A DNA stretch of 54,787 bases, counting the filler, from Sluysia triapertura (Eukaryota): NCBI GenBank assembly GCA_046118255.1. It is 4 parts of 4 records of this genome, joined end to end, with 100 filler letters (N's around TTAATTAATTAA, not from the genome) between each part and the next. Parts side by side here need not be neighbours in the genome. Positions count along the whole stretch, not along the records: positions 1 to 11,663 come from JBJNIA010182336.1; 3 more parts are not named here. One strand, 5' to 3'. This document shows positions 1-37,677 of the stretch, piece by piece (position 1 is the first letter of the stretch; each line of letters begins with the position of its first letter). A program made the translations under genes and the position numbers. The notes below the pieces were generated by a model that was not told where the DNA came from, searched no databases, and was given only the letters and a program-made list of their open reading frames with translations.

Positions 1-1578
1 CTTTAGTACTTATATTTTGGGTGCTCGTAGATTTCCTTTAAGTTTAAATTTAATACTTTAATTATTTTAAATGTTATTCTGATAAATATTCAAATGCTAA
101 ATGTTAATGTATTGTAAATTATAAAATGTCAGTTATTTAAATACCAAATGCCTTTAACTGGGGCAGTAGTCAGATACTAAATAACAAATAACTTTAGCGA
201 ATAACTTCAATAAATAATTGAAATCGAATACCAAATACCAAATATCGTCGATTAATAACTTGAATACCAAGTAACCTCAATAACCTGGACAACAATCGAA
301 TACCAAACACCTTCCATCAATAACTAGCTAACTTGAATAATTGAAAAGAACGCTTCAATTTATATTCGATTTTTTCCATAAATAACGACATTTTTAATTT
401 TTTTAATACAGTAATATATAGTAAAATTACTATTTTGATATTATTTCATTTACATTCTAGTTTGTTATTATTTTATTGTTTACTATTATGTTATTACTTT
501 TTGTTTTAATTTTTAATTTACATTATAACTTTGATAGTAATTTTACTATTTTTATTACTATTTTTAATGGTGTTAAATTTTAAATAATTAAACAGATAAA
601 CTTTACTATTAATAAATAATCTTTATTACATTATTATTATTATTAATACTAACAAAACATTTCAAGTTCACAATTCTTCAACATTAAAATCATTAATAAC
701 ATCGAAAATCATCAAATTTACATTTCAGAACAAATTTAATTCAAAACATCATTATAATCAAAATGGAATTTCTTTTAACATTTCCCATTTTACTAATTTC
801 TTTTTATAATTTTTATTATTTCTGTAACATTCTCAATAGTTTTACTATTTCATAAAAGAATTAACATGTTAAAAATAACTAAGTTTATGTTAAAATAAAA
901 GAAGTATTAAAAGATTTTTATTTTCAAAGAAAGTGTTAAGAAAAAGAAACAGAAATATGTACATTTATGTACTTTACTATTAGATTTTTATTTATTATTA
1001 TTATTATTATTCTCATTCTATTTTATTATTAATTTAATTATTCCTATTATTATTGTGTTATTTTTTTATTATTAGTACTATTATTATCATTAATTATTTA
1101 ATTGTATCACCACATTATTTTCATTGCCATCATCAATTATCATTTTGTCATTTTGTGTTTACTTACTTCATTGTTGCAACTGTCAATTTGGTCAGTATTT
1201 TGATTGTTTTTAAAATCTGATTTTAATTAATTTTGAATCAAATTTGCTGCTACTAGTGATTGTTATTGTATTGGCCATCCAATAACAATCACATAACGTC
1301 ACAATGTGTTCAGCGTTATATTGTAGTAACAAACATTTCTACTGGCCATCCAATAACAATCATATAATGTCAGTATATTTTGTGGGTACACAAGTGATTG
1401 GCTCAACGAATAGGTCAAAATAAAAGTTAAAAATACACTATAAAAAAGGAAAAATTTTGATAAACATGCATAAATCATTTTTAAAGTAATGTTAAAAAAA
1501 GTTGTAAAGTTTTCGATAATTATTTAAAAAGCATTTTATTGTATATTCTTTAATTAATGAAAATTGTTAGTTTTCCAG

Positions 1579-2136
1579 ATTTAACCAAATATTTAGATTT
1601 TGACATGTTAACTAAAATCATACCAAACGATTATGATAAAACTAAGTTCAGTAATTTATTAAATAATCAGAGTAACAAAAAGATAACCCGTTTCGCGAAT
1701 GTTCATCTGTCAAAGGTCCATTTAATAAATTTGTGTCAAAAACATTTAAATATGAAATCAATCATAATGACTCTGAACTGTTTACAAACCTTATAAATAT
1801 AACGATGCTCCAAATGTAATTAATTCGAATCTCAATGCATTAATTGATTCAAATATTCAAACGGCAATTGATCATAAGTCATATTGTCCAATTAATATGG
1901 AAACTAATGAAGGAAAAAGACAAGTAAATGACAAATTAAATTTTCTTAAACGTGCAATTTGTCCGTACCAATCCACATCGTCATGTAAATGTGTCATGTA
2001 TGCAGAACTTTGTCCGTATGCACATGGAATGAACGAGCTGGTACCAATCTCTGGAATGTTTAAAGAAAAATCATCTTGACTGTCGTATTGTCTTATCAGA
2101 GACTATAATAAAGTAAATTTTGTTTGTTTTAAACAT
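1579..2136 (+). pseudogene. Decayed tandem CCCH zinc-finger (TIS11/ZFP36-type) gene
   Basis: ORF 1897-2079 encodes LKRAICPYQSTSSCKCVMYAELCPYAHGMNEL, with the C-x3-H-G-x2-EL ending typical of TIS11-type fingers. That frame is open back to 1801. A broken second finger follows (FKEKSS*LSYC...; removing one T from the run near 2127-2130 gives KFCLFKH). Possible acceptor ttttccag ending 1578. Confidence 0.6.
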
Positions 2137-3038
2137 TTTTTTAAACATTTTATAACTTTTGTATTTAGAATGGCTACGTAGTTTATATAGTTATAAATAT
2201 GCAAATAAAAATAGAAATTAACTATGATAATTTACAATAGTAGTTTTAAAATTTAGTAAAATAACTTAAGTAAAGCAGGCAAATGTTTAAAGTAATTTAT
2301 TTTGTTAATTTATTTATTGCCATTTTTCTTCTAATGCCATAAAATAAAAAAGACGAACAATAACAATAAATCGAGATGTGACTGTTATATAAAACAATTA
2401 CCGTTTTTATTTAATCATAATCAGAGTTGAGATTGTTTAGATAATACATTCGGATTCATTTTTAGTTTTCGAGAGAGCCCAGAAATTTATTTTGTAATTT
2501 CATTGAGAGGATCGCTTTATCTATCTACATGAAAATATATTTTACTAATGAATTATTAGTATTTTAATAAAGCTGTATTTGACAAATATAATGTGGATGG
2601 TGAAGCACGTTAAACTTTACTACTACTACTACTATTACTACTACTACTACTATGCTATTGTTTACTTAATCTAAAAATTAGTTACTTTCTGTCAGATTTT
2701 GATGAAAAATATATCTTAACCGTCTAAAGGCCCATGCAACTTTCAGGTTACTTTTACCGAATAGTTTTAGTTATTTCACAAGATGTAATGCCTCTGAAAT
2801 GACCAATAAAAATGTTGATAAAGGTTGACGGTACCATCGACTTGAAATGTCAAAATCTAAAAAAATAATACGTCTATAAGAGGGTTAACATGCTTTTGTA
2901 GATAAGAATTATCACATCTAAAAATATAGGTTAATGTGTTGCTTATATACTTTAAAAATATGTTAACTTATTAGTAGAAAGGTACGTAGTTTCTTGGAAA
3001 AAATATTCTAATATATTAATTGCTGCATTATTATTTAG

Positions 3039-3453
3039 GCTGATTTAGTATATCAAGAACGTGTTTGTGATGACGAAATGATAATGATCAAAGAACCAAA
3101 AGTACGTAGTTCAGCTACTATTTTATTACGTGGTGCTAATGATTACTATGTAGACGAAATGGAAAGATCAATACACGATGCTTTGTGTGTAATTAAACGT
3201 GTTCTAGAAAGTAAAACTGTGGTACCTGGAGGTGGCACTTGTGAAACTGCTTTATCGGTGTTTTTGGAAAATTATTCAATAAATTTAGGTACAAAAGAAC
3301 AAATAGCAATAGCTGAATTTGCACGATCGTTATTGATAATTCCTAAACAACTGGCCGTAAATGCTTCGTTTGATTCAACAGACTTAGTGGCTAAATTAAG
3401 AGCTTTGCATCATAAAAGTCAATTGAAAGATGATGGAGATAATAATTTAAAAT
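3039..3453 (+). CDS. TCP1: T-complex protein 1 subunit alpha (CCT1), one internal exon near the C-terminus
   Basis: Acceptor ttatttag|GCT at 3038/3039, in frame with ORF 3078. Translation ADLVYQERVCDDEMIMIKEPKVRSSATILLRGANDYYVDEMERSIHDALCVIKRVLESKTVVPGGG...DSTDLVAKLRALH...NLK closely matches the CCT-alpha C-terminal third. Homology ends at a possible donor T|gtaact at 3453/3454, where WIGLDL is expected. The rest of ORF 3078-3824 is intron read-through. Confidence 0.9.
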
Positions 3454-4528
3454 GTAACTCAGATGATATTTGGAATGATTTTCCTGAAGTTCAACAAATG
3501 AATCCAATTTTACCTAACAAATTATTACACTGTTGGTTTATTAATTTGATATTGTTATTATATTTTTTACTTTGTAAATTAATACATGTTGCATTTTATT
3601 GTGTGTTCAAAATGTTTTTATTGTTAGTTAATTCGGGCCTTAAGCCCTTTTTGATGAATTTTAAAGTTGAATTAATTAGTAGTTATAGTTTAATAATTTT
3701 TAATTTTTTAAAACAAGAAAAATATAAAATTGTAAAAAGTTTAAAGACGATAAAGTCTTTAAAGACGCCCACAACACTTTATAAACTGTTTTCCATTTTT
3801 TATTTACTATGTATATTTAATTAAATATTTATATAATTTTTATTTTAATTACTTTGTATAATTATAAATTTTAACAAATTAAACTTTTAAAAAATAAATG
3901 ATAGAAAATAAAACTGCAATACAGGAAATACAGGTAAAAGCTAATATCAATAATCTGGTATGTCAATATGACAAGGATCAAACCTTCCAATTTCTGGCTA
4001 GGGTAATAATAATACAATAGAACCTAACAAGATAAAATACAACATCATTTTTAAATTTTGATTAGGTACACATATCTATGTTTCAACGCGGTACATTTTT
4101 CTTTTCTCCCTTATCCAATTAATTTTACCCATAATCCCTATTCATTCATTTATTCTTCCACTTTATTCCTTTCCTCTATCAATAATAATGTAGCTTCGAA
4201 CAAGTCCGGTTACTTACAACAGCAACATACCAGTTTCAGTAACAGTACGCAATATAATTACTATTATTTACTATTTTATCTCACAGATATATTTCTACTT
4301 TTACACTTTGTATAACTTCATACTTTATATTTTTTAGTATATTTTATTTATTTAGTAAATTCATGGAGTACGGAGCAGATGGTAATGGCAGAAAATGAAA
4401 TGCAAGTAAAATTTGAATTTTAATGTGGAATTAAATTATTTTTAATAAATGAGAAGTTATGTTGGCAATTAGGGGGGTTATGCTAAGGTTTTTCCTAACT
4501 TATTCTTATGAATAAAAGAATGTTTATA

Positions 4529-4580
4529 GTGAGTCCACCAACGTATCTAGTCTTACCTACTAGGGCTATCCGTTGGATTT
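4529..4580 (+). repeat. Conserved ~52-nt structured motif, copy A
   Basis: GTGAGTCCACCAACGTATCTAGTCTTACCTACTAGGGCTATCCGTTGGATTT; homologous to 4958-5007 (+) and 37678-37730 (-); CCAACG/CGTTGG stem. Confidence 0.85.
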
Positions 4581-4957
4581 CTTATAAGGATAATTTATAA
4601 CTACTGGAGGTTTAATTTCGCTTGTTTGCTTAAGATTTTAGATTTATATACAATTACTATATTTTATTGCAGTTCTTTTATTAAATAGAACAAAAATTCT
4701 TAATTTTTTAATTTCTAATTTTCCCAGGTTTCTAATTAAATAGAACCGTATCAATCTAAAATTTAAAACTTTTTAGAGCAATCAAAAATGCCGTTTTAAC
4801 TTAACGAAATGTTTATTAAATAAATGTTAGTTAGATACAATCAATAATAAAAATACAATAATAAATACAAAATGATTACAAAATTTATAAGATTTTCTAT
4901 CGGTGAAAATCTATGATAATATAATTGTGAAGTGAGAATAAAGCAAATGAAGATATC

Positions 4958-5007
4958 GTGAGTTCACCAACGTATTGGACTTACCAGCGAGGCCAGTCGT
5001 TGGATTT
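4958..5007 (+). repeat. Conserved ~52-nt structured motif, copy B
   Basis: GTGAGTTCACCAACGTATTGGACTTACCAGCGAGGCCAGTCGTTGGATTT. Confidence 0.85.
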
Positions 5008-6344
5008 TTACGTAAAGAAAAAGTGTTTTAATAAAGTCTCAGAACTTCTTAACTAAAAACCTGGAGGTAACTTAATATTATTTTAATCTATCCTATTAAC
5101 TTAAAAATGATTTTGCATGAATCCTGTTATAAGGATTCTTTATCTTTTAATTAAGAATTATTTTATCTTTTCAATTATATTACAACGCAACGCTTTTCTT
5201 TCGGGAAAGTTTATTATACAACAAAATATAATAATAAAATAATAATAATACAAATTTTTCACAAATTACTAATGTAAATCAAATATCAATAGAATTTTAA
5301 AAGAGATTTTTCAATGATCTATGATAAGATCATAAACATTAAAATGGATTAATTAATTTACCTATATATTACAATGATAATAAATAATATCAACCTTAAT
5401 AAAAATAATCTAACATGTACTGTTGATAGATAAAAAATCGTTTTTTCCAGAGAATTGATCAAAATTTATGTGAGCTAAATCTTCTTGAATTTTATCGTCG
5501 GGTATTACCAAAATTGATTTTCCAAGTGCTTATATTAATAATTTAAAATTTTATTGTTGTGTGATTTTGTAAAAATTATTGTCTTTATATACTTTTTTAT
5601 CTCTCAACCTTGACATATTCAATAAACAAAAAATTAAAATTAAAAATAAAGTTTAAAATTAAGAATTACTTTAAAATAATAATTAAAATATGACTTACTA
5701 TAAATTTCCAAAATAAATATCCGAAAATAAAAATTGTTAAATAAACAACAAAATTAAAATTTTTAAAAATTAATCAATAACTAAATACAAATAAATAATA
5801 CGTATAAATAACTATAAATAAGAATGTCAGATGAATATGCATAAATAAGAATGTTTGTATAAATAAGAATGTCAGATATTCATAATATTAATTTCACAAA
5901 ACTAGCGAATAAACTCAAGGTTTAATTAATGTATGCAAGTTCAAATGATAAATAATTGAACAAAATCCAACAAGGACAGATCATAAGCAATCCAAAAAAC
6001 AAATTGACGTCTGGAGCTTTAAATATTTTTAAAATAAAGTTTTTTGTGTAAATTTTTGTAAAATTTCTGATTTATATAGTTTTTTAGATGTCCTTGAAAA
6101 TGATTTGAATAAAGATTGAAGTTTTTTTAAAGAATTAATTTTAAGACGTAAAATTATTTTTATTTTAATTTAATTATTTTAATTTCTATAATTTACAATA
6201 ATAAATTAATAATAATAATACCATTAATCAATAATTTAATATATACAATTTATTTTTAGAATAATTGATTTAATAATTTATTATGTACAATAATTTTTTT
6301 AGAATTAATTTATACACACGTTTATTTTTAGATGTATTGCTTTA

Positions 6345-7330
6345 TTATGTACAATAATTTATTTTTCGAATTAATTTATACACTTTTATATTTACAGAGT
6401 AATGCAATAAAAATGACGAAATTACTACATATAGTAAGAGAATCGTAACCACTAATAGCATCATAATTTGAAGAAAGCTAGAACTTATTACAATAATTAA
6501 ATTCAGACAACGATTAAAGTAACTTTGATTAAGAATACATAAGTTCATGAATTACACAAATACTATAGGTACGTCTTTCATAAAAATATAAAACATATAC
6601 TGTAGGTGGACCCATTTCAGTAAATTAAAATTTTGATTTAAGTACGAGTAAGAAAAAATATCAAATATTTAAAATAATAGTGATTAAGATAACTTGTTCC
6701 CCTACTTTATTAATGTGGCGTTCGATTTGAAATAATATCTAGCCGCAATTTTCATTCATTTTATGATAATCTAACTCATAACAAATCTATTAGTTCAATA
6801 ACAAATACATATTCATAAAATTCGACTTTAGTCATCATCATATTACGAGTTCTCACAAAACGAAATTGTCAATAGTAATTTCTCGTCTGATCCTCAATCG
6901 ATAATAAATCCAATTTTTCATTAAAATTCTACGAATGACTACCACATTGTATACAAGAAACATGAATCTAATCATCATTCGTACTATCATTTTAAATAAT
7001 CATTAACTTCTGATTAATTTTATAAACAAATTTAAATTCTCGTTCTACAAATTCCAAATTGTTCGAAATAGTAACATCAACTTTAATATATCCGTCTCTT
7101 TCAACAACCATAATTCCAGAGTGTTTAACATTGTTTTATAAGTACTATTTCGCTTGGTCCATAGACCCTTTACTGTACACCTTTGATAAACATTTATCCT
7201 GAATAATAATAACTAATTATTCACTAACAGAAAATCAAGTAGAAAAGCATGCGTTCAGTTACAAGACTTTGACTGCAGGCGAGCTCATAAATTCTATCAT
7301 TATTGATTGTAGGTTTAAGATTAAAAAAGC
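6345..7330 (-). pseudogene. Unidentified decayed coding-like sequence (possibly 3' part of the upstream KDM1B-like locus)
   Basis: Minus-strand frames read as protein-like between scattered stops (LKPTINNDRIYELACSQSLVTERMLFYLIF; HSGIMVVERDGYIKVDVTISNNLEFVEREFKFVY; HVSCIQCGSH), with a short gttagt...ttcag intron-like segment near 7199-7228. No family recognised. Confidence 0.25.
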
Positions 7331-8156
7331 ATCACATAAATCAACATTGAAAGTAATTATTTTAGTGCCATAATTTTAGTTGTCATTAAGATTTTTGAGT
7401 ATCGTATTATTCGTGTTTGTACCGATTTAAAATTGCTCACTATATAATTCAATGTTGATAATAATCTTTCCCCAATAATTATAATATTCAATATTTAAAT
7501 ATTATTACAGTTATTCTATTAGAAAAGTCGATTAAATTCTTCTTAATAAGTTTATCAACTGATAAACTTTATTGATTTAAACTGATAACTTTATTTATAT
7601 TTCTTTAATCGTTTGCTATTATTATAAATGTTAACTTTATATTTATCAATTACATGAAAGCTTATTTTCTACGATTTTTTGCTGATTTAATTTTAAAATC
7701 TCAATTTTTACTCTAATTGAGTAATTGAACCAAATTAATCTAAATTAAGTTTTCTTTATAACTTTAGCTTAAATGCGCTACTTATACTTATTTTTCTTAA
7801 TATCTCCTTTACAACTTTTACTTGTAAATTATGATTTCAGTATTCATCTCTCTTTTTAAAATGCAAGTGTTAAGCAAATTTTTGTAAATTAGACCCTACT
7901 TCTCAGTCCCTTGTTTATTAACAAGTTTAGCTACAAGTACAATCACAAAAGGAACAAAATTTTATTTAATTCGAAGATTTTACTAAGATAGAATAACCAA
8001 TAAAAAACGAAGTTTTATTTATTTCAAAACTTTTTTACTAAAATGAGTTAATAAATAATATAATCAAATATTCAAATTTGTTTAGTTTTATGCACAAAGA
8101 TATGTAAAATATAAAAATTTTATACTATAATTCTGAATGAATAATAAATTACTTAC

Positions 8157-9956
8157 GTGCACAAAGTTATTCATATGAAAGTTGTTGAATGTTTTATAAT
8201 CTCTTGATCCAATGTTATATATGCTGCAGAATTTCAGCAACCAATTTGATCCTATAACGTCTATCGTCTTAGTGCTAGTCTTCGTTCAGTCAGTACTGTT
8301 GTGGATGTTATTGTTATGTATGTTATATAATAATGTTTTACGAATAAATTTTGAAGTAAACAAATGATTTGAACATGTAACTCTGTAACTTTGGTTCTCT
8401 TTGAGGGCTTATAAATATTGTTATGAAATTCTAGAATTAATTTTTTTATATATTGTATGTGTTTCGTTGATGAATTTAAGAAGTTAAATGTTTCAGGGTT
8501 TGGTACTTGTTTATTATGAACAACAATGGTTAAAGGTCGAATTGAATATAGGATAATATACATTCTTACAATTTTTATTAAGTGTGTTGATCTTTTGTTT
8601 TTTAGGATTTTAAATTTTTTTTTAATTATTTCTTTCGTGTAGTATAAATTTGATGGTTCCTTAAAGTTACATATATGGTTTCGAAGGGATATTAATATCT
8701 TAATTTCAAAGTAAAAGGTTATAATTGAACAACAATTATAATAAAATTTTATTTCACAAATAAAATGTTTGACTATGATTTTTAATCTAAGAATTGATTT
8801 GATGATGAGTTTTGATTTCAAATTCCTAACATCTGTTATCCATCTTTCTTTTTGTTGCATTTTTCGGATCCTATCGAACTGTTTGGTATCTAAATTATGA
8901 TCACATAAAAATAAAAACATAAAACTAACAAAATCGAATATAGTACATATTACGTTAACAAGATTGATCATTATACGTGCAATTCTACTTAATAATCTTA
9001 AGTCTGTAAAGTCACTTGGCTCATCGGAAACAATCAGAAATGAAATTTTCCATATTATTGTGAGTTGATAAACATAATTTGTAGGTCGTATTACCTTCTT
9101 CGTATTATTAAACCAGAATCTAGTACTAAAATGACATTTTTATAAAACAGAAGAATATCTTCTATAATTGTTTCAACTAAATTATTATGTTCTGTTACGA
9201 GAAAAAAATTCATGAATATACTGTCGACAGTAATGTATCTTGTTTCACCGCTATACATAACCACAAGGTCGATTGCTCCTGCAATAACGTTAATGTCAGA
9301 CATCCGTTTGAGAGAATGAAAATTTAGTAGGAATCCTTCATAAATTACAGATAACGAAAAACTTGCTGTAGTTTCAATTAGATTGATTCCACTAATGTTT
9401 AAGGCTGAATCGTTATAACATCTTAAATTAATTGAAGATTGCAAACGCAATCTAAAAACTAAAGAAAACAAAAGTATTTTTAGATTTAATTTTATATATT
9501 GAATGTTTTTATCTAGAACTATTTTACAAGGACTTTTGATATGTTTTATCACAAGATTAAATGAGACATTATCTACTTCTGTAGTCATTAATTTTATAGC
9601 TAGAATAACTTTTCTCCATTTATTACATTGACAACATCGATACCAAACAAACAACGATTTATTGTAAATGAAATCATTAACCGACCTGTTATGATGTGAC
9701 TTCGCAATCCATTCCTTTTTCGACATTGTATGTCATAAATCAAAGATGGTGTTATTATTTTCATACAATTGTTACAAATATGTTTACCATTTAAAAATTG
9801 ATACCATTTTAGATTAGAATCAGAACATTCTTTGGTAGAATGTAACAAACACATTGGAGAGCTTGAAAAACATCTGTTTTCATTGCATTGGTTAACTAAT
9901 TTCTTTTTCATAAATTCTATACTTTTGAAATTGAATTCTCGAAGTAGATAATCCAT
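8157..9956 (-). pseudogene. KDM1B: Divergent KDM1B/LSD2-like gene (C4H2C2 zinc finger, zf-CW, SWIRM-like region, degenerate amine-oxidase start), frameshifted
   Basis: ORFs 9600-10019, 9091-9726 and 8261-8971 join through 1-nt shifts near 9727 and 9106. CNENRCFSSSPMC...EC...KWYQFLNGKHICNNC aligns to LSD2 CEKAGCTATCPVC...RC...RWYHLSCGEHFCNEC. KKEW...FVWYRCCQCNKWRKV...SPCKIVLD aligns to KKIW...PYWVQCTKPECRKWRQL...DHCSLPED. IEDILLFY...GLINT aligns to the SWIRM end VERILYFMTRKGLINT. Donor gtaagt at 8156. Confidence 0.75.
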
Positions 9957-10098
9957 ATAAACGCTTTTGATAATTTTACAAATAGAATGTCTGATAAAAA
10001 ATTTTGTCTGTCTAGCCAAGAAATTTTGTGAGACTAATTTTTATTGTCTATTTTTTAATCGTGTTATGAGTTAATTTTTCTTTCTTGCTATTTTTAAT

Positions 10099-10154
10099 CC
10101 ACCCAATCAGATTACTAGTAAGTGAGATAAAAAGTGATCAGTCTGATTGGGTGG
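10099..10154. promoter_or_regulatory. Perfect 13-bp inverted repeat with two opposed CCAAT (NF-Y) boxes upstream of the KDM1B-like gene
   Basis: CCACCCAATCAGA (10099-10111) and TCTGATTGGGTGG (10142-10154), 30-bp spacer, about 140 bp upstream of the first in-frame ATG (9956). Confidence 0.5.
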
Positions 10155-11394
10155 TGTATGTTGATCAATGACATACCCCGCAATCATGCATATACTGACA
10201 ACTGACCATCATCAGGGCTGACAGCCTAATGCAAATGTAACATTGACTGTCAACACTGATGATGGCAGCAACAGTTTAACCGTCAAAATTATAGTTTATT
10301 TTTAATTCATGTTATTGAATAGCAATAATGATGATGATAATAATAATAACAATATGAATAATGATAAGAACGGTAATACTAATAACGACAAAAATATCGT
10401 TATTATTATTATTAATGAATGTAAAAGCATAAAATACATAAATATCTTTTGTACAAAATTCCACACGATCTTTTTCTTTTGTAATCTTAACTTGTTCTAA
10501 ATATGAATGAGATAAAATGGAACAAAATGATGTCATATTGTGAAGGAACAAGAGTAACTAAGTATATGAGATATCATTTGTGGTTGTTGCTTCGCAGTAT
10601 GATAATGAAGTCTTTAAAGTTATCTTAAATTTTTTTTGAAAGATGTGATGGTTTAGGTTGTAAGTGAAATGAAGAGTGTTAGAATAATTTATTAAAACTT
10701 ATTGATGGTTTATAATTTGAAAACAAGATTTATGCATTAGATTGTGCGACTTGTAACATGACATTGGTGCAACTAATCTACAATCAAAATTTATTTTAGC
10801 TCATCATTTTTTATTAGCAAAAATTGTTGAATAAATTTCGTATTATCGATTATAGAAATGTGATCGACAGCAATGAAAATGTAAATTTAATATGCGGCAG
10901 TAACACAATTTGTGTAAAGTTCGATAGAGTACTAAGGACAAAGATACAAAAAAAGATAAAGTTTTTAATTAAAACCTTATCAGAGCATTTAATTTTTATA
11001 ACAATACTTTGAGAATGATTTTAGCATTAGTAAATGGGGATCAAATTCAGTTAAAAGTTGAGCTTACAATTTTATAAAAAATCTTTCCAAACATCACGAA
11101 TAATGAATTAAAAAACTTTGTTGTTATTTATTCTTTTTGTTCTGAGTTCCTTGTCTAGTAATCGATAATGTTTTTGTTAACTGATAAAAATGCATAATCA
11201 ATAAGCTGTATGATTCAGATGCAGCTACATATATTGGCCAGGAGCCAATCAAAATCAACTAGATTTCAAGAACAATCTAGCACATTTTTTTCCTTTTTAG
11301 CAAATGTTATTTTCTGTTTTCGAAAATTAATTTCTTTTTAATTTTTTTAATAGGTTGAAGGGTGGTGATATCATTATATTTATAATCTTTTATC

Positions 11395-11600
11395 AGAGAA
11401 TTTAATATGTTTGTAATTGAATTCGTCCAAATATTTTCTGCTATTGCCAACACAACATATATGGCCTTCGTGTGCGAAGTCATATTTCAAAATTAATAAT
11501 ATTTAATATGAAACATGTGTTATCATTATTTTGAACATTAACAACACTCTCAGCATGTATGAACCTATCTTGTATCTTAATGCATGATGAAGAGCTGTGG
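11395..11600 (-). mobile_element. Polinton/Maverick (adintovirus-like) DNA polymerase B N-terminal fragment
   Basis: SSSCIKIQDRFIHAESVVNVQNNDNTCFILNI...VGNSRKYLDEFNYKHIKF resembles the remembered Polinton motif GSSYIxLPxxIxxKKAVINVxNxDNxCFxW...VSxYxxYxxELNFxGIxFP. Frameshifted. Confidence 0.55.
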
Positions 11601-11663
11601 GAAATATTTTATTGTTTAAATTAAAAATTTTATTTTTTTTCTTTTTTTTAAGAAAGTTTAAAA

Positions 11664-26410: not shown

Positions 26411-26900
26411 CTTAATGGAAACTCTTCAGACATGAATCCCATAGAAAATCTGTGAGAGATTGTCAAAAGGAAAGTTTCAACCACTAGGTCAGAACATATT
26501 GAAACCCTGATAAAAGTATGGCATCACGATGATGATATCAAATATTTGTGCCAAAGTTCATCCGTGGCATGCCTTTAAGGATCAAGAAATTAATGGATAA
26601 CAAAAGAGGCCAAACAAAGTACTGATACAACAGTTTGTACATATTTGATTTGTAGTAAAATGTGTTATCACATTCTACATGAATAAAATTTCTGTATGTT
26701 TTGGATCTCAGTATTTTTATCTATTATTTTAGTTTCAGTAGAATTTTTTGGAGAAAGTAGCTATTTTCCAACATTTCGCATTTTTTATGACAACCATCAG
26801 TAAATGGCATGTATTTATACACTTCTGATTAATAGTTTCATAGTGTCCTTGAAAAATGTTGAATTTTATCACAAAAATGGTCTTTAATCTAATAATTTGT
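26411..26900 (+). mobile_element. Tc1-like transposon 3' remnant, second copy
   Basis: GNSSDMNPIENL*EIVKRKV (SPDLNPIENLW motif); clear nucleotide similarity to 11764-12130; TIR truncated. Confidence 0.85.
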
Positions 26901-35159: not shown

Positions 35160-35351
35160 AAATTATTTGTTATTGTCCAAAAATGACTAGACGAACACAA
35201 ACAGCATGGTGATTACTTTGTATGTGATAATGAATATTTTTGATTCGTTATATTAACTGGCAAGGTCATTTTTAAATATTGATACAGATATTTTTTTTAG
35301 AAAATTTGAAATCCATTTTATTGCGAACTATGTGAACTCAGAAATTTATAC

Positions 35352-36699
35352 ATGGAATATTTTAAAATAAATGACATAGTTGTATATAAAAACTTTTCAG
35401 GTGTTATTCGATACATTGGGAGGACTAAGATACCAGAAATTGGTATGGTATTGAATTGGATACACCAGATGGTAAAAACAATGGAACTGATGATAAAGAA
35501 TCGTATTTTAATTGTAAAGATAATCATGGAATTTTTTTGAAAGGAATTCGAATAGAGAAGAAGAAATCGAGAGATAATTCAAATAAGGAAAATGAAAGAG
35601 AATTGGATATTGAAAACAATCAAATGGATGGCAAAAGTGCATCTAAAATAAGAACTTCGTTGATGCCTAAGTATTCGAGATCAAGTTTGAAACCAACAAC
35701 TACGCCAAACAGATTTTCAAAAGTTATCACAAAATTGACTGAAATTGATGAACCTAGTAAATCATCTAGCATTTCAAAAATAACAAAATCGAGTCAGATT
35801 AAAGATAAAATAACGCATTCTTCAAGTCGAGTTTCAGTGACTGTGCCAAATGCGAATTTAAAATCCGAGGCAAAGGAATTGAATTCCGAAACTTTGAAGC
35901 GAGATTTAGAATATCTAAAAATTCAAAAACGAAAAGACCGCGAATCCTGGAAATCAAAAGAATTAAATTATCAACAAGAAATTGAAGAATTGAAAAGGAC
36001 TAATCAAAATTTACAAAATGATATAAGTGATATAAAGAAATTGAATGATAATGTGAAATCGCTAAACGAAGAGTTGATCATAGGGAAAGAGCGTTCTGAA
36101 AATTTGATACCAGTCGTCCAAGTAACAAAATATTTTAAGAAGGACACTTCTCCATCTCAAAGTGTACGACAAAAAATGCTAGAGTTTGAAAAATTCGAAT
36201 TGTCATCGAAACTCGATTTTGTTTATAAAATTATACCAGATGATCTCTTTCGAATAGAAGTGTACAAGAAACGTATTGATACAATCACAAATTAATGGTG
36301 CTTGTTAAAAAAGTTGATTTACTTATTGAAGAGATTCAGATTTCGAAAGGAGATCCGTCGATAATAATAATTTTATCCAATGTGGAGAATATCGGTTTTT
36401 TAAATAGAACTCGTTTCCTTTTAGAAATATTGATATCACGCGCATCTTTGATTATGCATTTTGCAACAATGGGATCTGGTCGTCATTTAGAAAGTGAACT
36501 TGCCATACCATATCGGCAATTGTTATCGAACTCCAGGTTTAGATGCTTAGATTTGTGGTATTATTTTTTAAAAGAAAAGCAAATTAAATTTATACCGAAG
36601 GACGTTTGGGATATGTTTTATGAATTTATTCAAAATACAGGTAAAAAAATGTTCAATTATCACGCGGAAGATAAGGGAAACTCTCGATTATATTTGTAA
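35352..36699 (+). pseudogene. DCTN1: Intronless chimera: shortened dynactin p150Glued (CAP-Gly, basic region, coiled coil, start of dynactin domain) fused to a DCN1 cullin-binding fragment; two 1-nt frameshifts
   Basis: GVIRYIGRT../NWYGIELDTPDGKNNGT...YFNCKDNHGIF is a CAP-Gly domain (shift ~35436). IIPDDLF.../LVKKVDLL resembles DCTN1 FMPDSFL...LICKAELI (shift ~36292). From ~36460, FATMGSGRHLESELAIPYRQLLSNSRFRCLDLWYYFLKEKQIKFIPKDVWDMFYEF...MFNY matches DCUN1D [56 protein letters not shown]...MSNY. Confidence 0.8.
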
Positions 36700-37677
36700 A
36701 GATTAAAATTAAAGGTTAAAGGTCATAAATCGATAATTTATTCATTGATAATTTATTAGTTTTTAAATTTAATAATTCTAATACATCATTCAAATTTTAA
36801 TCGTAGAAATAATCAAATTAAAGTGAGTTATCATAATATTTTTTATTAAAATTTTTATAATTTTAAGAAACTATAGTAAAATTACTTATCGTCGTTAATG
36901 ATATTTTGTTTAAAATTTTTATTTTATTTCAAACATTTAAAATTATTATTTAAAATTATATTGAAAAATCACTCAAAATTATATTATTTAAAAATTATTT
37001 TAAAAATTACTATTCTTCAAAATTATTACTCTTGTTTTAACTCTTGTCAAGGTCAATTGACCTAGTATAAATATCAATAATTCTTTTACACATTTCACAA
37101 CAAAAAAATTTCTTATCGCAAATTATTTTACCAAGTCGTTTGCAGCTTTCAGTCCGTAATTTTACTCGCTCGCTGAAGATTTAAGTTTTTTGAAATATTG
37201 TAATCTAACATTCGGTACAAATCAAGTGGAAGCTAAATTCTCAAACAATTCCTACAATTCGATTTATTTGTCGTATTTTACTCATTAGTTTTTATATCTA
37301 AGTTTCTCTCGCAATATTTAATATTGCTTCACTAAAATCCTACTCAATTTATTTGAAGTAATTCCAGCTATCGTTTATAGATAGCTTATTAAACTACTTT
37401 ATAAAATTCTTTTACATTTGATTATTTTTACAATCTTATCAAAATTATTATATTTATTGTAAAAATCATTTTTAGCATTTATTATAATATACGATCTTAA
37501 TAGAGTTTGTTCAGTTATTTAAAATTTGAATAAAAGACAGGTTCAGTGTAAGAACCTAATTAAATTTACTGACGGTTCTAGAAAAGAATCAAATTAAAAT
37601 CTTATTTAATTTAAAATTTTAGACCTTGTATTATTATAAAACAAAAGTAAAGTTTTGATCTTTTTGCACTATCAGAT

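Follow-up and report, generated by a model that had tools for sequence, protein, structure and literature searches.

The locus raises the question of what a short block of sequence, which opens with a splice donor word (GTGAGT) a few nucleotides behind a poly(A) signal, is doing at several places in an animal genome. A preliminary description had proposed a covarying RNA module in LTR-like repeats, perhaps BEL/Pao LTRs, in which a poly(A) signal, a donor and a built-in U1 mimic might form a switch or a pseudoknot. We followed this up in a window of 54,787 nt, the whole stretch of DNA analysed, which consists of four parts of the Sluysia triapertura assembly GCA_046118255.1 joined with filler. 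An 18-nt pattern of the motif matched exactly at three places in the window, 4529 (+), 4958 (+) and 37730 (-), with a mean of 0.03 matches in 100 shuffles, and a further site at 45671 carried three mismatches to it. Pattern matches and a pairing check upheld all three loci and everything that had been said of their sequence. Homology among the copies, which we call A, B and C (Table 1), was limited to about 55 nt (blastn) and conservation started exactly at GTGAGT, whilst flank homology stood at background in 17 of 18 comparisons (100, 200 and 350 nt, upstream and downstream, three copies), the exception being A versus B downstream at 350 nt, where 1 of 400 controls reached the value. A covariance model built from the three copies found no fourth in the window (next E 0.16). 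The 52-nt motif is a genuine repeated sequence with unrelated flanks, present as three copies in the window, and with 17 flank comparisons lacking homology the label of LTR-like repeats is not confirmed. As far as searches by content and by sequence words show, the motif has not been described in the literature, and none of the papers listed as containing one of six 11-letter motif words is titled on such an element.

Table 1 Coordinates of the motif copies, their parts and the features around them, counted along the window.
Feature	Position	Strand	Remarks
Copy A (A-type)	4529-4580	+	pattern match, pairing table, contig depth
Copy A, S1	4529-4533/4552-4556	+	
Copy A, P1	4538-4543/4571-4576	+	
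Copy A, P2	4547-4550/4566-4569	+	
Copy A, variable loop	4557-4565	+	
Copy A, ATTT	4577-4580	+	
Copy B (B/C-type)	4958-5007	+	two near-equal folds
Copy B, S1	4958-4962/4980-4984	+	
Copy B, P1	4967-4972/4998-5003	+	
Copy B, P2	4975-4978/4993-4996	+	
Copy B, loop	4985-4992	+	
Copy C (B/C-type)	37730-37678	-	11-nt variable loop
GAATAAA of copy A	4510-4516	+	12 nt before structure
TGTGAAG..AGAATAAA	4927-4942	+	upstream of copy B; TGTGAAG common to B and C
GAATAAA of copy C	37736-37742	-	5 nt before structure, at end of decayed reading frame
First AG after copy A, candidate acceptor	4577-4588	+	GT..AG span 60 nt
Mid-copy repeat segment holding A and B	4480-5217	+	left edge near 4470-4480, right edge beyond view

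The window has a GC content of 18-33% and its gene content is that of an animal, with TCP1, a tyrosine kinase, a Strabismus-like frame, CAP-Gly and a sugar transporter (Pfam). The TCP1 piece, at most 74% identical to anything listed and with molluscs, annelids and flatworms near the top, is a lone TCP1-alpha exon (3039-3452, +; residues about 351-482), no other TCP1 exon being present in the window, and a lone Unkempt-type CCCH finger lies at 1777-2076 (+; PF25427, E 9e-5, below the cut-off). A CAP-Gly frame followed by a Cullin-binding (DCN1-type) frame at 35310-36699 (+) is apparently a chimera. Broken cysteine-rich frames at 8261-10040 (-) had no Pfam hit, and by eye they resemble the N-terminus of LSD2/KDM1B; decayed cysteine-rich frames also lie downstream and upstream of copy C (37040-37330 and 37757-38009, -). 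CCAAT-box, palindrome-rich promoter-like stretches stand ahead of decayed frames at 1256-1450 (+), 10100-10280 and 39540-39870 (-), and A/B and C are each downstream of such a stretch in the same orientation, a weak observation given 22 such boxes in the window. Two repeats were seen besides, a direct repeat of about 330 nt (11772-12118 and 26492-26899, 86-91% identity, 14.7 kb apart) and a 93-bp tandem array (44480-44950, +) with a small hairpin per unit whose letters differ between units.

Every conserved block of the motif has a partner within a single predicted pseudoknot. An H-type geometry of two interleaved stems with compatible loops, judged by the usual loop rules for pseudoknots, fits all three copies, in line with the pseudoknot option raised at the outset; the fit is one of geometry only, not proof, and ViennaRNA cannot score the knot. 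Predicted stem S1 pairs GUGAG with CUUAC over 5 bp, S2 is a 6-bp P1 stacked on a 3-4-bp P2, and loops 1 and 2 measure 4 nt and 1 nt, whilst loop 3 (8-11 nt) holds the part of the motif that varies in length. The two folds behave as they had been described: in fold 1 all pairs are standard in 3/3 copies, with one G-C/A-U swap, and fold 2 has a U-G pair in B and two mismatches in A. This swap in P2 has no counterpart in the 5' strand, so the pairing that all copies have in common is P2 and not the extended hairpin of fold 2. Contigs beyond the window copies add to this picture, as position 4569, which pairs with C4547, is G in 80 other contigs (depth 4,487 of 5,198), two other A-type variants among those listed (40 of 119) fall in loop 3, and positions 4559, 4560 and 4997, variable among the same 40 of 119, are unpaired in the fold. 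Of the covarying module once proposed, the single compensatory swap in P2 stands and statistical covariation does not, since it amounts to 1 of 14 pairs and 190 of 500 shuffles score as high; the S1 and P1 pairs are invariant (11/11), hence uninformative on this point. A sequence-free descriptor of the pseudoknot gave 19 hits in the window, namely the three copies and 16 AT-rich places (5-13 hits in shuffles), and the copies were the only hits above 27% GC.

Folding energies computed for RNA were better on the + strand in 3/3 copies (z of -2.4, -3.5 and -3.7 versus +0.3, -1.1 and -1.1), and lend support to the strand-specific RNA structure that had been suggested, whereas with DNA energies the strand bias was inconsistent, the + strand being better in two copies but not in A. 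The modelled folding favours the + strand as RNA, and the motif is probably an RNA structure of a mobile element. When pseudoknots are left aside, copy A adopts only fold 1 within 6 kcal/mol, C only fold 2 and B both, its two folds competing at -15.2 and -15.5 kcal/mol; in B and C the donor can alternatively sit in a predicted 9-bp hairpin. The 3' strand could also pair within loop 3; such a second partner is unusual for B (20 of 4000 random loops), whereas it is marginal for C (454 of 4000) and absent in A (3298 of 4000). The two competing folds that had been suggested are thus supported in copy B, but no conserved two-state switch emerges, as A and C each keep one fold.

The poly(A) word stands directly ahead of the motif in all three copies. 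GAATAAA ends 12, 15 and 5 nt before GTGAGT in A, B and C, which bears out the 5-15 nt first reported, and it is the sole 7-mer common to the three copies in 24 flanking 25-nt windows; three random windows of 25 nt share any 7-mer in 283 of 200,000 draws (0.14%), in a test made after the word had been noticed and with n = 3. Mere background, in an AT-rich window where GAATAAA occurs 35 times, was dropped as an explanation after this test, and the link between AATAAA and the motif appears non-random, being unlikely by chance. B and C also have TGTGAAG just ahead of GAATAAA, and 232 of 50,000 random windows have such a word in common. As GAATAAA is common to A, B and C, and TGTGAAG to B and C, the unit extends about 20-30 nt upstream of the motif with a loose spacer. 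Loose ends of 22 other contigs before 4529 carry AATAAA in the majority cell, at an agreement of only 0.56. Cleavage usually falls 10-30 nt behind the signal. The motif copies have CA dinucleotides at 12-25 nt from the hexamer, followed by a G/U-rich stretch.

The donor itself is mediocre. The three sites match 5, 5 and 6 of 11 donor-consensus letters, and none has G at -1; the letters directly upstream of GTGAGT are ATA, ATC and TAA, and T is the commoner letter at 4957 in the contigs over copy B. A strand able to pair with a donor consensus will always look like the 5' end of U1, so the built-in U1 mimic provides no independent evidence, and reduces to an arm that pairs with GUGAG. The first AG behind each copy gives GT..AG spans of 60, 60 (ending at 5017) and 62 nt (ending at 37669) in A, B and C, and a spread of 2 nt or less occurs in 0.7% of random triples, an observation made after the fact. 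These spans, homology that starts at GT, and a host intron of only 54 nt in the kinase gene (25093-25146) speak for the motif as the body of a structured 60-nt multiplying spliceosomal intron with GTGAGT as donor, CTTAC as branch site and the first AG as acceptor, of the Introner/ILE kind, whose members are described as multicopy introns with stable folds in the available part of PMC3609843. Two of the three acceptors are AAG, however, conservation does not reach the AG, removal leaves at most 31 open codons across the joint, and no copy lies within a recognisable coding exon or has a TSD, and we regard an intron as improbable. A CTGGAG followed by GT, a donor-like word, lies 24 and 54 nt after A and B (4603-4611 and 5060-5068, +) and is absent after C.

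Two further classes were rejected on the sequence around the donor. A flatworm SL RNA has a conserved leader ending in AUG before GU (excerpt of PMC12582326), and the upstream triplets of the motif do not read so. A frameshift or read-through pseudoknot would need a slippery heptamer or a stop at fixed spacing and a frame that stays open through the element; no heptamer lies in the 25 nt upstream (3/3 copies), stops lie at varying spacing, and the copies differ in length by 1-3 nt.

To gauge abundance, contigs of one DNA-type sequencing run were placed on 4300-5300, which covers copies A and B. Single contigs there have a depth of 11.6-16, whilst summed contig depth, which is not a copy number and comes from a run that may itself be the source of the assembly, reached 2,788-11,733 over copy A (8,323-11,733 also given) and 99,642-250,481 over copy B, and so exceeded single-copy DNA hundreds- to ten-thousand-fold. 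These values clearly mark the motif as a major, high-copy repeat, and the B type is far more abundant than the A type. At 4529 and 4580 the loose ends of 22 and 48 contigs set in, with an agreement of 0.56, which implies that elsewhere, too, the motif has differing sequence on either side. A and B sit in a mid-copy segment with a left edge near 4480, as contig depth is 12-80 at 4300-4469, about 200-740 in the stretch from A to B and 400-5,400 behind B, and one paralogous contig begins matching at 4480. At this edge lies the sole G6 run of the window, followed by TG (4472-4481, +). Behind copy B, a second high-copy module at 5082-5149 (+; depth 3,297-5,436) has a 7-bp hairpin at 5119-5138, and its 3' half resembles the 10 nt directly after copy A.

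A very high copy number for only the last 50-70 nt would fit 5' truncation of a LINE or SINE, in which case the motif would be a 3' tail recognised by a stringent reverse transcriptase and its fold would bring AAUAAA near a cleavage site after ATTT. Majority cells of the loose ends that trail the motif are rich in A (agreement 0.56 and 0.76), but no copy has a poly(A) or simple-repeat tail (0/3; A fraction 0.33-0.43 over the next 40 nt) or a TSD above chance, and the DNA upstream of A is single-copy whilst that downstream is repeated, so that such a tail seems to us very improbable.

The same asymmetry around A, unique DNA upstream and repeated DNA downstream, is what one would see if a retroelement RNA began with a self-cleaving ribozyme of an undescribed kind or with a knot that blocks exonucleases, and were set free from the upstream transcript by cleavage, either the ribozyme's own or that of the poly(A) machinery at AAUAAA. 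Blocking of exonucleases is the behaviour of xrRNAs. The sharp 5' edge with a free letter at -1 and a helix from the first nucleotide, and a compact pseudoknot with invariant unpaired letters, are consistent with this, and ribozymes at the 5' end of the flatworm element Perere-3 offer a precedent (excerpt of PMC8501958). Against it, the Rfam ribozyme models, including HDV, hammerhead, twister, pistol, hatchet and twister-sister, gave no match, and descriptors for HDV, hammerhead and twister found 0/6 strands (three copies, both strands), the HDV descriptor being our own (a nested double pseudoknot that includes P3/L3, P1.1 and a catalytic C); the earlier judgement by eye that no hammerhead, twister or HDV core is present is confirmed by both. 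The internal loop of the motif, at 2-3 x 1-2 nt, does not have the size of the 5 x 6-nt loop with a CA cleavage site given for the TS-like (lantern) ribozyme in the accessible part of PMC11620745. Furthermore, an RT or endonuclease frame is absent from the window, and sequence common to B and C occurs 30 nt upstream, which means that the 5' edge is more than a plain joint left by insertion. On balance a ribozyme or blocking knot is unlikely. In its fuller form, a new class of catalytic or exonuclease-blocking knot in thousands of copies, coupled to the poly(A) signal, would split one transcript of a gene-capturing mobile element so that the upstream part becomes an mRNA and the downstream part a protected RNA, the built-in donor acting as the switch; this, too, we consider unlikely.

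A retroviral-type setting found no support in the window. Paired or homologous LTRs around the motif were absent (18 flank comparisons, blastn), a PBS of the form CA-N0-4-TGG was found within 400 nt downstream in 0/3 copies and a purine tract of 10 or more as PPT in 0/3 (700, 370 and 700 nt upstream); one G6 run lies at 4472 near A. No reverse transcriptase, integrase or protease was found in the 17 window frames run against Pfam; these were chosen from 29 with a length of 120 aa or more, and the others were N-run, simple-repeat or shorter frames. Target-site duplications at the motif copies were not above chance (own flanks versus 344-844 of 1000 random ones). With paired repeats, PBS, PPT, TSD and a pol gene all missing from the window, an LTR setting, BEL/Pao or other, is unsupported. 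An Rfam scan of the motif, which the preliminary description had proposed, returned chance hits only and no match to a described element, and a tRNA search found none. Exact-pattern scans of viral, metagenome and GTDB collections yielded no true copy: there were 3, 0 and 8 loci in viral collections, 2 in metagenomes and 50 in GTDB genomes, of which five short-pattern loci lacked the 3' half of the motif and 0/58 gapped-pattern loci had S1 or P2, and no locus among all 63 scored above 31 bits with the model, whereas the copies used to train it reach 80-82.

The motif might instead be the right end of a Helitron2/Helentron (HLE2)-type rolling-circle transposon acting as single-stranded DNA, in which a linear repeat near the terminus precedes a hairpin that compensatory change has preserved, and a T-run closes the element. 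Right ends of about 60 bp over unrelated bodies are given as typical in the part of PMC7492417 available, and the flanks of the motif fit this. Its size and order also match published right ends, in which a linear block is followed a few nucleotides later by a hairpin and 38-60 bp on by a T-run; the Helentron 3' subTIR is placed 38-60 bp from the end, with a hairpin a few nucleotides after it and a T-rich end, in excerpts of PMC4067079 and PMC2374699. In FoHeli1/2 a hairpin with the arms AGTCC..GGACTT is followed 38-51 bp on by a terminal ATTTT, and the FoHeli2 arms resemble fold 2 (excerpt of PMC5148889). The lone TCP1 exon and the Unkempt-type finger could be captured gene pieces, and the three-mismatch 18-mer at 45671 could be placed as a left end for C, across assembly gaps, which is weak. 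Published right-end hairpins, however, are short near-perfect palindromes with 2-4-nt loops as far as PMC7492417 was available, unlike the irregular stem of the motif with its constant G-U pairs, and strand-specific folding is found only as RNA. DINE-like subTIRs keep ATACC whereas the motif reads ATACG, a comparison with the subTIR table only (parts of PMC2374699 and PMC7492417). No inverted left-end repeat, which would measure 11-15 bp, lies upstream of A or B in 4.5 kb of window, depth is higher downstream than upstream of both, and the 17 window frames scanned include no RepHel frame. AATAAA and the pairings of S1 and P1 would moreover be left unexplained by a Helentron end, and we consider one unlikely.

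The reading that we prefer, tentatively and at less than even confidence, is that the motif forms a pseudoknot in the RNA of a mobile element, directly behind the poly(A) signal, and would gate cleavage by hiding the donor. We favour donor gating as the sole reading that uses AATAAA, the start at the donor, the paired blocks and the RNA strand bias together. With the donor paired, U1 snRNP would be unable to bind and cleavage could follow at a distance of about 12-25 nt from AAUAAA. An open donor would let U1 bind and suppress cleavage, and the transcript would read on or splice. The element would then have to copy DNA beyond the cleavage site, in an LTR-like, rolling-circle or other manner. 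The sequence, spacing, high copy number and unrelated flanks are observed and the fold is predicted; transcription, cleavage, U1 control and the carrier element we infer. Several observations stand against donor gating, namely the lack of LTR, PBS, PPT, TSD and pol frame in the window, a mediocre donor, an S1 that alone is a weak hairpin (-1.4 to -1.9 kcal/mol), bistability in B only, covariation no higher than in shuffles, and the frequency of AATAAA and GAATAAA in this DNA at large. With its 52 nt and its natural variants in very many copies, the element lends itself unusually well to the study of covariation, structure and cleavage. Control of polyadenylation would make it a compact example, outside the retroviruses, of U1 control gated by structure, and cleavage or a block to exonucleases would make it a new RNA class. 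As a transposon end it would provide what the gene-capturing elements of this genome lack, an ordinary outcome if it proves to be only a Helentron end.

The nematode operon Ur element pairs with the SL2 donor. Like the motif, it is structured and lies downstream of a poly(A) signal, upstream of an acceptor (excerpt of bioRxiv 10.1101/642082), but the motif has its own cis donor and is a high-copy repeat. The closest counterpart of donor gating is the foamy virus LTR, where RNA structure masks the donor and so allows polyadenylation; there too a donor lies beside the poly(A) signal and its exposure or masking decides polyadenylation, but it is upstream of the signal, in a true LTR, and was tested experimentally (part of PMC3694450). 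In the motif the putative donor is 5-15 nt downstream of the signal, and no LTR was found. In taeniid flatworms, transcripts of the ta-TRIM LTRs undergo cleavage 12-15 nt behind the signal and solo LTRs yield short or read-through, spliced RNAs, yet these elements have paired LTRs, PBS, PPT, 4-5-bp TSDs and an AATATA signal, none of which is seen with the motif, and the accessible text names no such pseudoknot (PMC4558846). The Perere-3 twister T-variants of Schistosoma are likewise pseudoknotted RNAs in hundreds of copies tied to a mobile element (excerpt of PMC8501958), from which the motif differs in having no twister core, another topology and no RT frame downstream in the window. Finally, the ends of Helentron, HINE, DINE-1 and FoHeli elements are, in the excerpts available (PMC4067079, PMC2374699, PMC7492417, PMC5148889), similarly about 50-60 nt of linear block, hairpin and T-run shared over unrelated flanks, with a compensatory change in the stem as in the motif, which is set apart from them by its irregular stem, its constant G-U pairs, two extra long-range pairings and the AATAAA upstream.
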